Below are positions 824 through 46,047 of a DNA stretch of 64,000 nucleotides, in pieces. How positions within the stretch are numbered: the stretch's first letter is position 1; each line of letters begins with the position of its first letter. The notes under the pieces are model-generated. The model was given only the letters and a program-made list of their open reading frames with translations. It made no database searches and had not been told where the DNA came from. A program made the translations under genes and the position numbers. Origin of the DNA: Thalassolituus maritimus (lineage in GTDB: Bacteria > Pseudomonadota > Gammaproteobacteria > Pseudomonadales > Oceanobacteraceae). Location: the NCBI RefSeq assembly GCF_913019975.1, contig NZ_CAJWBH010000015.1. The stretch is one strand, 5' to 3'.

Positions 824-1540
824 TTACCAGATACGGAAGAAGCGGTGGACGCTGAACTGAATCAGAGTGCCTGCATCGAAGTCGCCACCCAGATTAGTGC
901 GTTCCAGGGTCAGGCGGTAATCCCAATGATTCCAGGTTCTGGCGGCTCCTACTCGGAAGTGCCAGTAATCGTCAGCCGTCGAGCTGCCGAAGTTCGTCGT
1001 TTCGTCGGTACCGTCTAAGCGATGATTGGCGCCGTAGAGTTCGATTGAAAAAGACCCGGTCTGAAAGGTGTAGGCTGTTTCGAGGGTATGCAGGTTGTAT
1101 TCGCTGCCGTAATAACCGTCTGCCGCCCGGTATCCCAGAGTCAGGTTGTTGTCCCACAACAGACGAAGTGCTGTTTCGTTGTATGCATCACCTTTTTCTT
1201 CAGCGTCACCATGGAAAGTGAAGCGCGTCAGGCTGGCATCAACAGACCATGCTCGCCAGAGCGGCAGGTTAGCACCGCCATACACATCCCATTCGGAGTG
1301 CAGGCTATCTGCGCTGCCGTGGTCTACGTTACTGCCCCAGGCGCCAGCATAAAACCCTGAGTTATGGGTGGCCGTCATGCCTGCCTGCCAGGCGGCTTTG
1401 CCGCTGGTCTGGCTTATGCCGTCACGCACAAATTCAGAGGTGACTCCAAGGTCGGCGGTAACATCAGCCAATGCGGCATGGTGACAGGTCAGTAAAGCGG
1501 CTGACGTGAGTGATACAAGCAGGTATTGCAGACGTGGCAT
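824..1540 (-). CDS. TorF-family putative porin / outer-membrane beta-barrel
   Basis: Signal peptide, then 'TSEFVRDGISQT..AWQAG..GFYAGAWGSNVD..EWDVYGG' pattern typical of the family; aromatic C-terminus. Confidence 0.7.
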   Translation of the reverse strand: MPRLQYLLVSLTSAALLTCHHAALADVTADLGVTSEFVRDGISQTSGKAAWQAGMTATHNSGFYAGAWGSNVDHGSADSLHSEWDVYGGANLPLWRAWSVDASLTRFTFHGDAEEKGDAYNETALRLLWDNNLTLGYRAADGYYGSEYNLHTLETAYTFQTGSFSIELYGANHRLDGTDETTNFGSSTADDYWHFRVGAARTWNHWDYRLTLERTNLGGDFDAGTLIQFSVHRFFRIW

Positions 1541-1599
1541 AAGGTTACGAAATCCGTCAGATACATCAGGCGCCTAGTGTAGCGGAAGCGGCGCTCGCT

Positions 1600-2670
1600 T
1601 CACACTGCCGGTGTGATATTTCCGCTCATTCCCGGATACCAGCGTTCAAGTGCAGACTGAAGGGCTCTCGTCTGATCTGCCGCTGATTCAGGCGCCCACT
1701 GCGGCATGGTCCGAGCAGCAGACATCAGAAAGTCGAACAGAACCAGATGCCGACGCAGAATCCGCTGTTGGCGGTGGGGTAATACCGGGTTAAACAAACC
1801 GTGATAACGCAGGAGGTGTCGTGGGTTTTTCTTGACCCAAAGCCAGGAGCCCATTTCCAGAGTGATAGGAATAAAACAACCTTCTGGTTGCATCGCCCGG
1901 TAATCATCGTAGAGGTAATCCCACATGTCACCGTTGGTGGTATAGCTGTGCGCCTGCGGCTCAAACAGATACTGCTCGTGGCTGGGGAAGCTGTGTTCAA
2001 ACAACTCAGTCAGCGTATGGGCAGCGCCTATTCCGGGCCATGGGGCAGTGCTTTTAGCGTATGGAAACCAGAGCCGGTCGCGGGTGCCGAAGCCAGAGTG
2101 GCAGTCGAGGCTGATGCAGTATTTCTGATCGCGCAGAGCATGATGAATGGCGTCGCTTAGCGCTTGATTCTCGGGCTCCATCGGGCGGCCAGGTTTGCCG
2201 CGGTACCAGGGCAGAGCGGAACTGATACGTTGGCCGCCCACCAGCCATGGGGTTTTGCCCTCGGCTTCGACCGGCGCATTGCGCATCAGATCCACACCGT
2301 TAGGGTTGCAGCGCGTATTCTCAGCCATGCCACCCGGGTTAACGATAGGGATGATTAATAGCCTGAGGTGTTCAAGTTGATCGCGAATAACAGGGTCCCA
2401 GTGCAGACGACGCACCAGGCTCTTCATAAATGACAGAATGACCTGGGTGCCAATGCGTTCGACGCCATGTACACCGCCAACCAATGCCAGCACCGGAGCA
2501 TCTTTAGCAGTACTGCCCATTTCAAGAACATAGAAAGGAAGATGTTCACCCTTGTGCTGTATGTGAGCAGGTACACGAATCCGCATGTACTGTTTGCCCT
2601 CTTCGATGAGGGACTCAAGTTCTGCCAGTTCTGGCAAAGCCGCGTTAAGGCGGGAAATGCGTTGAATCAC
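1600..2670 (-). CDS. M14-family zinc carboxypeptidase-like protein (DUF2817-type)
   Basis: GGVHGVE (HxxE), NPGG, RCNPNGVDLMRN, DCHSG and TLEMG motifs. Confidence 0.75.
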   Translation of the reverse strand: MIQRISRLNAALPELAELESLIEEGKQYMRIRVPAHIQHKGEHLPFYVLEMGSTAKDAPVLALVGGVHGVERIGTQVILSFMKSLVRRLHWDPVIRDQLEHLRLLIIPIVNPGGMAENTRCNPNGVDLMRNAPVEAEGKTPWLVGGQRISSALPWYRGKPGRPMEPENQALSDAIHHALRDQKYCISLDCHSGFGTRDRLWFPYAKSTAPWPGIGAAHTLTELFEHSFPSHEQYLFEPQAHSYTTNGDMWDYLYDDYRAMQPEGCFIPITLEMGSWLWVKKNPRHLLRYHGLFNPVLPHRQQRILRRHLVLFDFLMSAARTMPQWAPESAADQTRALQSALERWYPGMSGNITPAV

Positions 2671-44354: not shown

Positions 44355-45662
44355 TTAGCCGGCTGTGCGCCCAGGGAGAACATCTTTCAGCTTCTCACGC
44401 ATTTTGCGGATTGCATCTTCAGTTTCTTCCCAGCTGATGCAGCCGTCTGTTACCGATAAGCCGTACTCCAGATCATCCAGGTTGGCTGGAATATTCTGAC
44501 GCCCGTGTTTGATGTTTGATTCAACCATCAGGCCGATAATGGATTTGTTGCCTTCAAGGATCTGGTTGCTGACGTTGTCCATGACTAATGGCTGCAGTGC
44601 CGGATTCTTGCTGCTGTTTTCATGGCTGCAGTCGATCATGATGTTCTGTGCAAGATCCGCTTTAGACAGTGCGTCTTCTGCAATCTGGACGTTCACTGAA
44701 TCGTAGTTTGGCTTACCGCCGCCGCCGCGCAGCACAACGTGTGCGTAAGGGTTGCCCTTGGTTGAAACGATTGAAACCTGGCCGCTCTGGTCGATACCAA
44801 GGAAGCGGTGCGGGTTGGCTACTGACATCAGTGCGTTAGTAGCAACTGTCAGGCTGCCATCGGTTCCGTTCTTGAAGCCAACGGCCGATGAAAGGCCTGA
44901 AGCCATCTCTCGGTGTGTCTGGGATTCTGTAGTGCGTGCGCCAATAGCTGACCATGCGATCAGATCCTGAAGGTACTGTGGTGAGATCGGGTCCAGCGCT
45001 TCAGTGGATAGTGGCAAGCCGAGCTCTGCAAGATCAATCAGAAGGCGACGCGCGGTATGCAGACCGTCCTGGATTTTGAAAGTGTCGTTCATGTACGGGT
45101 CGTTAATCAGCCCTTTCCATCCAACGGTAGTGCGAGGCTTTTCAAAGTAAACGCGCATTACAAGGTAGAGGGTATCGCTGACTTCTTCTGCCAGATCCCG
45201 CAAGCGCTGAGCGTAGTCTTTAGCTGCATCTACGTCGTGGATGGAGCAGGGGCCGACCACAACAAAAATGCGGTGATCTTTACGATCCAGGATGTCGCGA
45301 ATGGCCTGGCGGCCTTTACAGACGCTTTCGACAGCTTGCTCAGAGATAGGCATCTCTTCTTTGAGCTGAGTTGGGGTTACCAGAGTCGCGATGGACTCAA
45401 TATTGAGATCTTCAATGCGATTGTCAGTCATTTCCTGTTGGCCTTCAGACGGTTGGGCTGGTGTTGTCTCAGGTTGGGAGGGGGCTGAGCCTGCGGTCAG
45501 TTGCCCTTTGGTCAGGGCAGCAATTTGCTTCTGACGACCTGCTGGCGGCTCTTCTCCCCATTGGGAGACCGCCGCAGCGGTCAGCTTCCAGCCGTCTTCG
45601 GAACAGGCTTCTGCAATAGCTTTTTTGGTTCCGAACCAGGCGACAACATCAGTTGTTTTCAT
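44355..45662 (-). CDS. class I DAHP synthase (from internal Met78 at 45431) with in-frame N-terminal P22-Cro-like HTH
   Basis: GPCSIHD, KPRTTVGWKG, GARTTESQ, DCSH.NS, SVTDGC; residues 1-58 match P22 Cro pattern 'DV...FGT..A.A...AAVSQW.E..P'. Confidence 0.85.
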   Translation of the reverse strand: MKTTDVVAWFGTKKAIAEACSEDGWKLTAAAVSQWGEEPPAGRQKQIAALTKGQLTAGSAPSQPETTPAQPSEGQQEMTDNRIEDLNIESIATLVTPTQLKEEMPISEQAVESVCKGRQAIRDILDRKDHRIFVVVGPCSIHDVDAAKDYAQRLRDLAEEVSDTLYLVMRVYFEKPRTTVGWKGLINDPYMNDTFKIQDGLHTARRLLIDLAELGLPLSTEALDPISPQYLQDLIAWSAIGARTTESQTHREMASGLSSAVGFKNGTDGSLTVATNALMSVANPHRFLGIDQSGQVSIVSTKGNPYAHVVLRGGGGKPNYDSVNVQIAEDALSKADLAQNIMIDCSHENSSKNPALQPLVMDNVSNQILEGNKSIIGLMVESNIKHGRQNIPANLDDLEYGLSVTDGCISWEETEDAIRKMREKLKDVLPGRTAG

Positions 45663-45671
45663 AATTAGATA

Positions 45672-45729
45672 TTAAGTTAGCTTATTCGTGCTTAAGCTTA
45701 ATAGCCTGGCTGGGGTTAAGTAAAGTTAA
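45672..45729. promoter_or_regulatory. operator-like inverted repeats upstream of the Cro-DAHP ORF
   Basis: TTAAG-TTAG-CTTAT (45672-45685), TTAAGCTTAA (45692-45701), TTAAG-TAAA-GTTAA (45716-45729). Confidence 0.5.
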
Positions 45730-45732
45730 TTT

Positions 45733-45912
45733 TTAGCGAAGACGGCTTTGAATGTCCTTGAATCGTTCTACTTTATTTCTTTCGAAAAGCATTGGCTCGC
45801 TGCCTCCTGATGAGTCGAGGAGTCCCTCGCGAGCATAGCGCTTAACTGTCACAGTTTTGATTTCGAGGTACTTTGCGACTTCTTCGATGGTCATAAGTTG
45901 TTGGTCAGACAT
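45733..45912 (-). CDS. HTH_17 / excisionase-like small DNA-binding protein, 59 aa (absent from ORF track)
   Basis: Hand translation MSDQQLMTIEEVAKYLEIKTVTVKRYAREGLLDSSGGSEPMLFERNKVERFKDIQSRLR*; AAGGAG SD. Confidence 0.82.
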   Translation of the reverse strand: MSDQQLMTIEEVAKYLEIKTVTVKRYAREGLLDSSGGSEPMLFERNKVERFKDIQSRLR

Positions 45913-46047
45913 GCTCGCACTCCTTTATGTATATGCACTGGAGTAAGAGTTTAGTCAGGATTTGACAGCGTGTTGGCGGGCGGTGGTTCGTTGCGCCTGA
46001 CTCAGCTGACAGAGCAGGCGCTTTGTTTGGTTGGGGCGCAAGTATTG

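Follow-up and report, generated by a model that had tools for sequence, protein, structure and literature searches.

BirA and NadR are metabolic enzymes that also act as repressors. Trifunctional PutA belongs with them as an autogenous repressor in which a ribbon-helix-helix (RHH) domain at the N-terminus is joined to a proline catabolic enzyme (PMC5293562). The locus described here, within a 64-kb stretch of Thalassolituus DNA (hereafter the window), encodes a phage-type Cro domain fused to a DAHP synthase (Cro-DAHPS) and resembles PutA in two respects. In both, a DNA-binding domain forms the N-terminus of a metabolic enzyme and matching (here operator-like) sites lie in the promoter region of the gene itself, and an oligomeric enzyme would supply the multivalency. 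As in PutA, both parts lie in one open reading frame, which in this case runs to 430-450 aa with a variable in-frame linker in six lineages. Unlike PutA, BirA, and NadR, which use RHH or winged-helix domains, this fusion has the helix-turn-helix (HTH) of a phage Cro protein, and the pathway is that of DAHP synthase. The fusion also differs from PutA-like regulators in its origin, which is recent and restricted to a small marine clade and appears to lie in a phage immunity module.

The aroF and aroG genes of E. coli are regulated by TyrR, and some DAHP synthases carry fused regulatory domains (ACT, chorismate mutase). Fusion of a CM-like domain to DAHP synthase has been documented (PMC5526877). 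In contrast to these systems, the added domain in our locus is a DNA-binding rather than an allosteric one, and the gap upstream of the gene has no TyrR box at up to three mismatches, which rules out this type of site there. Full-text searches of the literature turned up no account of a fusion between Cro and DAHP synthase.

The Cro-DAHPS fusion and its distribution

The window is 100% identical to L001, contig NZ_FTOH01000003.1 of Thalassolituus maritimus DSM 24913. The Cro-DAHPS gene occupies 44355..45662 on the minus strand, with its ATG at 45662, and encodes 435 aa, in which a variable linker joins a P22_Cro domain to a DAHP synthase of the AroF-like kind. The Cro domain (residues 1-57; 45492..45662, minus strand) is an all-alpha HTH whose turn is five residues longer than that of P22 Cro owing to the insert SEDGW. 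In Pfam searches, P22_Cro (PF14549) matched residues 2-63 with 42.4 bits, above its gathering score of 30.2, and DAHP_synth_1 matched residues 110-416. The domain is 36% identical to P22 Cro, and the two recognition helices have AAVSQW in common. An AF2 model built from a 60-sequence alignment reached a pLDDT of 89.3, while an earlier one from only five sequences (pLDDT 62) was unusably poor. The top Foldseek matches of the better model were 1rzs (P22 Cro; TM 0.84, rmsd 1.0 Å) and 6on0 (N15 Cro on its operator; TM 0.78), and in it the SEDGW insert lengthens the loop that connects helices 2 and 3.

The linker (residues 58-77; 45432..45491, minus strand) is of low complexity, and across lineages its length varies from 18 to 38 aa with no conservation of sequence. 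From Met78 onward the protein is a type I-alpha DAHP synthase (44355..45431, minus strand), as judged by family HMMs for the AroF/G/H group (NCBIfam TIGR00034, 492 bits; NF009395, 528 bits) and by similarity to solved AroF and AroG over the full length. It is nearest to the Tyr-sensitive AroF: the closest solved structure in the PDB was E. coli AroF (6agl) at 427 bits, versus 371 bits for AroG.

A search with the Cro domain found the fusion in six diverged lineages, namely the window and the genomes or MAGs L084-L088, along with two further metagenome fragments (L081 and L082). All fused lineages are Thalassolituus or close relatives, and each of the complete loci L084-L088 is a single ORF of 430-450 aa. 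A mis-called ORF can be ruled out, as the frame is kept through linkers of every length in all six lineages. The nearest aroG relatives, L002 and L003 (87% and 84% identical), start at the equivalent of Met78 (MTDNR...) and have no Cro domain. The fused lineages are separated by dS values of 0.9 to more than 2, with synonymous sites saturated, and dN/dS was 0.02-0.18 for the Cro domain and 0.00-0.07 for the enzyme part. The recognition helix is invariant among them. The low dN/dS indicates that the Cro domain is under purifying selection, and the structural match to P22 Cro that it is a real one, which is in line with the view of the initial annotation that the domain is functional.

In the closest unfused relatives, a minus-strand gene lies between the TauE/HTH_17 genes and aroG (L002 2320-2907 and L003 1940-2887), in the place where T. 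maritimus has the Cro domain, which marks the junction upstream of aroG as a site of rearrangement. In a predicted protein of 90 aa from a metagenome fragment (P0018), an N-terminal piece of DAHP synthase, with 93% identity across some 29 residues, is followed by the tail of a PIN domain (PF01850). Either disruption of an aroG gene or chimeric assembly may account for this protein.

Operator-like sites in the upstream gap

Between the Cro-DAHPS ATG and the stop codon of a gene for a 59-aa HTH_17 protein lies a gap of 70 bp (45663-45732; 31% G+C). The initial annotation had placed three motifs here, all of which we found on the plus strand at the positions given: TTAAGTTAGCTTAT at 45672-45685, TTAAGCTTAA at 45692-45701, and TTAAGTAAAGTTAA at 45716-45729. 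It had also given an AAG-N4-CTT core for the c2/Cro operators of phage P22. The P22 sequence (BK000583) bears this out in both the right operators (OR3, TTAAG-TCAT-CTTAA; OR2, TAAAG-ATTC-CTTTA; OR1, TTAAG-TGTT-CTTTA) and the left ones (OL1, TTAAG-ACTT-CTTAA; OL2, TGAAG-AAAA-CTTAA), which together yield the more specific consensus TTAAG-N4-CTTAA. Two of the motifs in the gap are each one mismatch away from this consensus. On the coding (minus) strand, the proximal site O_P (45672..45685) reads ATAAG-CTAA-CTTAA and the distal site O_D (45716..45729, within a 16-mer at 45716..45731) reads TTAAC-TTTA-CTTAA, with 44 bp between their centers. The proposal of O_D as a site stood as to its position and its match to 9 of the 10 positions of the palindromic consensus, but it is not a true inverted repeat.

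Within the window, the consensus occurs three times in 64 kb at up to one mismatch, and two of these occurrences are in the 70-bp gap. Shuffling of the gap itself, which controls for its AT-richness, gave probabilities for two or more sites of 5.5e-5 (mononucleotide) and 1.0e-3 (dinucleotide). The two sites in 70 bp are thus not a chance occurrence. We found no intrinsic terminator in the gap. An RNA element is unlikely, as Rfam families matched the gap only far below their gathering scores and its RNA fold z-score was -0.08.

Relation to phage P22 and origin of the module

Among the closest described counterparts of the gap and Cro domain together is the P22 immunity region (c2-OR-cro). The two share the fold of PF14549 (1RZS; N15 Cro 2HIN/6ON0), the AAVSQW of the recognition helix, and the operator consensus, and in both the sites overlap the promoter of the cro-bearing gene, although here the promoter is a predicted one. 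The differences lie in the arrangement. P22 has three tandem sites 23-25 bp apart and two divergent promoters, whereas the fusion locus has two sites 44 bp apart, no cI/c2 partner, no divergent promoter, and transcription in one direction only. P22 Cro is a free protein of 61 aa, while Cro here is the N-terminus of a 435-aa enzyme, so that the locus does not have the usual free Cro of about 60 aa divergent from a cI-type repressor. The fusion further differs from P22 in the five-residue insert of its HTH turn and in having no Shine-Dalgarno sequence before its ATG.

A HMMER search of 1.8 billion representative proteins showed that stand-alone Cro proteins of 58-77 aa with the same turn insert (xDGWxxT) form a subfamily. 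Four of these could be placed on contigs, and each was divergent from a cI-like HTH_3 gene (with or without an S24 peptidase) and upstream of lambdoid replication genes. The intergenic regions between cI and cro in these relatives contain AAG-N4-CTT palindromes such as GTAAG-AAAT-CTTAC and ATCAAG-AAAA-CTTGAT, and GTAAG-AAGA-CTTAC in L090. Single-protein scans with P0021 (against genomes) and P0022 (against viral contigs) gave no match. An exact scan of genomes and metagenomes with the distal 16-mer returned, among the matches listed, mostly chance matches in AT-rich genomes, but also another fused locus (L322) and a phage immunity region (L285). In the latter, which is metagenomic, the identical 16-mer TTAAGTAAAGTTAATT lies between a cI-like gene (1367..2002, minus strand) and a cro gene of the P22_Cro family (2116..2307, plus strand), in a region (2003-2118) that also has TTAAT-TTCA-CTTAA and TTAAA-GAAT-CTTAA. 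Taken together, these sequences show AAG-N4-CTT as the putative operator core of the whole family. Since the stand-alone relatives are phage cro genes divergent from cI with such palindromes between them, the suggestion of the initial annotation that cro was captured with its operator region while cI was lost is a fair reading, and the identical 16-mer in L285 speaks for it as well. L285 is also a natural comparator for operator specificity.

Conservation of the sites and a predicted promoter

Both sites are present in all six fused lineages, whereas a search of 79 unfused aroG loci from -150 to +60, with one mismatch allowed, found no site in any of them. The 16-mer that includes O_D (AATTAACTTTACTTAA, 45716-45731) is 100% identical in six of six. 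In L088 the upstream TauE and HTH_17 genes are gone, 256 bp separate the fusion gene from a LysR gene that faces it, and the module is retained; in L002 the HTH_17 gene is present and the sites are absent. The sites therefore go with the Cro domain and not with the neighboring genes. At the finer scale, the gaps of the window and L084 are identical at 64 of 70 positions at a dS of about 1, with five of the six differences in the spacer of the predicted promoter described below and the sixth just upstream of the predicted start. The initial annotation had asked whether the spaced palindromes are conserved in orthologous loci, and this is so for O_D and O_P but not for TTAAGCTTAA, which reads TTAACTTAAT in L085, TTAAGCTGTT in L086, and TTAACTTGTC in L087.

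The TTAAGCTTAA palindrome (45692-45701) is unique in the window, where 0.03 occurrences would be expected, and had been put forward as a further operator-like element. Only its core is conserved, as TAAGCT or in other lineages TAACTT (45695..45700, minus strand), and this core is a probable -10 element. A third operator in this middle block was thus ruled out, as the conserved part is not palindromic. The corresponding -35 element would be TTTACT (45719..45724, minus strand), which is embedded in O_D. In each of the six fused lineages, a single TAnnnT hexamer follows TTTACT at a distance of 17-18 nt, with a spacer of 18 nt in the window, and we infer from this conservation a sigma-70 promoter with a predicted start 7 nt downstream of the -10 element, near 45688 (45687..45689, minus strand). 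The hexamers are weak, with four of six (-35) and three of six (-10) consensus matches, which explains why they were not picked up by a generic promoter scan. Of all parts of the gap, the spacer between them shows the least conservation, and a MerR-type site there was rejected for this reason.

Relative to the predicted start, O_D would lie at about -41..-28 and cover the -35 element, and O_P would lie at +3..+16 in the window. O_P begins 44 bp after the start of O_D in every fused lineage except L088 (43 bp), and falls within +3..+18 throughout. This includes L085, where it is at +4..+17 and the predicted leader is 81 nt long, compared with about 25-27 nt in the window and 22-28 nt across the other lineages. 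Because O_P in L085 keeps its distance to the promoter despite an insertion of 55 nt, it appears to be tied to the promoter and not to the ATG. The insertion itself, seen in the 5NW40/TARA lineage of T. maritimus (L085 2920-3003; also L081 2385-2443), lies between the proximal site and the ATG and holds an upstream ORF of 18 codons (ATGACCATT...AATTGA). This ORF ends 1 nt short of the Cro ATG, so that translation of the two could be coupled.

Proposed autorepression and alternative readings

The gap is best explained as a promoter-operator module of phage origin that has been domesticated and accompanies the Cro domain. We are far more confident that a conserved, functional cis-module exists here than about which protein binds it. 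Our best reading, which we consider somewhat more probable than all else combined, is that the Cro-DAHPS fusion represses its own gene at O_D and O_P, with both DNA binding and repression deduced from the features described above. The fusion is the only Cro-family protein tied to the sites, and we favor it for this reason. In the proposed mechanism, a weak sigma-70 promoter starting near 45688 is flanked by two P22-type pseudo-palindromes of 14 bp, to which the N-terminal Cro domains of the fusion would bind. A small Cro protein needs to dimerize, and the enzyme body can provide for this because DAHP synthases of type I-alpha are oligomeric; it would bring the Cro domains together in pairs or fours. 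Protein on both O_D (over -35) and O_P (at +3..+16) would then block RNA polymerase and shut the promoter of its own gene, and the enzyme body could also bridge the two sites. The placement of the sites, relative to a promoter predicted from conservation and the ends of RNA contigs, fits the layout of a repressor.

A rather unlikely alternative is that the conserved blocks are only the relic of a promoter. They would then be a -35 element, a -10 element, and an AU-rich, S1-dependent leader that came from the phage, and the Cro domain would no longer bind them but have another role (elsewhere in the genome, or in solubility) or none. The distal block does contain the -35 hexamer and the middle block the -10 hexamer, so that the -35 element could account for the invariance of O_D no less than a repressor could, and the true target of the Cro domain could lie elsewhere in the genome, given that sites were counted within the 64-kb window. 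The missing Shine-Dalgarno sequence is in keeping with a leader that matters for translation, and the insert in the HTH turn is unusual. Against this reading, O_P retains its palindromic half-sites while its 4-bp spacer varies (ATAAG-CTAA-CTTAA, CTAAG-TCAG-CTTAA, CTTAG-TTAA-CTTAA, TAAAG-TTAA-CTTAA, and TTAAG-CTGG-ATTAA), a pattern that would be expected of a site bound by a dimer rather than of a leader. Its fixed position relative to the promoter in L085 argues the same way. In addition, purifying selection acts on the Cro domain, whose recognition helix is invariant, and stand-alone Cro proteins that share the insert are found at phage operators.

We consider it less likely still that the sites are bound in trans, by the HTH_17 protein, by a c2/Cro-type repressor of a resident prophage, or by a TyrR-like regulator. 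The HTH_17 gene (45733..45912, minus strand; 59 aa, excisionase-like by Pfam) is directly upstream of the fusion in five of the six lineages (absent in L088) and partly co-transcribed with it, and P22-type operators are by nature recognized by repressor and Cro alike. As noted above, however, L088 has the sites without the HTH_17 gene and L002 the HTH_17 gene without the sites, the gap has no TyrR box, and no cI-type gene is found in the locus. The HTH_17 gene lies just downstream of a TauE sulfite-exporter gene in fused and unfused relatives (window 45733-45912; L002 1688-1867). This conserved pairing makes it part of the TauE neighborhood and not of the captured phage module.

Autorepression by the fusion may extend to sensing of a metabolite. 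The enzyme is AroF-like, which suggests the speculative possibility that tyrosine, at the allosteric N-terminal region, tunes DNA binding. In its fullest form, the idea is of a self-contained metabolite-sensing repressor in which an AroF-like tetramer would bridge two operators 44 bp apart with four Cro domains, tyrosine would alter occupancy, and initiation at Met78 would set the ratio of fused to catalytic subunits, replacing TyrR-type control in this clade. We regard this complete scheme as doubtful.

Transcripts and leader

The RNA data are assembled contigs of public metatranscriptomes, and the positions given are contig ends and not mapped 5' ends. Upstream ends of Cro-DAHPS contigs were found at 45687 (X37), 45680 (X30), 45676 (X35), 45670 (X29 and X31), and 45668 (X38), and further ends at 45654, 45652, 45631, and 45620. 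Nine runs had contigs that stop in 45620-45687, none of them past 45688, and in most runs whose contig stops at or before 45687 the depth over the HTH_17 gene was zero or lower. Four deeper runs (X25-X28) had unbroken contigs from 44200/44433 to 45911-45941, a short way upstream of the HTH_17 start codon. The ends within the gap and the unbroken contigs together point to a start of its own for Cro-DAHPS in the gap plus read-through from the HTH_17 promoter. The contigs of four runs end at 45938-45941 (one at 45911), and 45941 is preceded at a distance of 7 nt by the hexamer TAAACT (45948-45953). The transcription start of the HTH_17 gene is likely near this position. In two of these four runs, RNA depth falls sharply toward the TauE gene.

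On the coding strand, the sequence upstream of the Cro-DAHPS ATG ends in ...CTTAATATCTAATTATG, in which TAATAT (45669..45674, minus strand) is followed by CTAATT and then the ATG. We confirmed that no Shine-Dalgarno sequence precedes this ATG: none of the six lineages has GGAG, GAGG, AGGA, or AAGG in the 20 nt before it. The predicted leader of the mRNA is short and AU-rich. The initial annotation had also drawn attention to TAATAT 6 nt upstream of the ATG and to a possible leaderless transcript. The hexamer is indeed there, in ideal geometry for a -10 element of an mRNA starting at the A of the ATG, and the missing Shine-Dalgarno sequence would suit such an mRNA, but we find this very improbable, as TAATAT is confined to the window and L084, the conserved promoter predicts leaders in all lineages (up to that of L085), and RNA contigs run through the hexamer to 45668-45687, with RNA 6-25 nt upstream of the ATG in at least seven runs.

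A possible internal start at Met78

The last codons of the linker, just 5' of Met78, contain CAGGA(A) at 45432-45437, which is the ancestral Shine-Dalgarno sequence of aroG. In unfused relatives, TCAGGA is found 5' of the start codon, and that start codon is Met78 of the fusion. Although the linker is otherwise unconserved, every fused lineage retains CAGGA (AAGGGA in L085) at a distance of 2-10 nt upstream of the internal ATG. Since the ancestral Shine-Dalgarno sequence and ATG are still present within the ORF, the enzyme may also be made in free form. We speculate that free DAHP synthase is translated from the internal ATG as well and that the fusion is a minor, regulatory form.

Significance

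The system is small, with a domain of 60 aa, two sites of 14 bp, and a cultured type strain, and the idea is therefore directly testable. If true, autorepression by Cro-DAHPS would extend the few known enzyme-repressor fusions by a DNA-binding fold and a pathway that are both new among them. It would also be a clean, recent, and evolutionarily traceable case in which a phage immunity module, Cro with its operators and with cI lost, was rewired into host metabolism.
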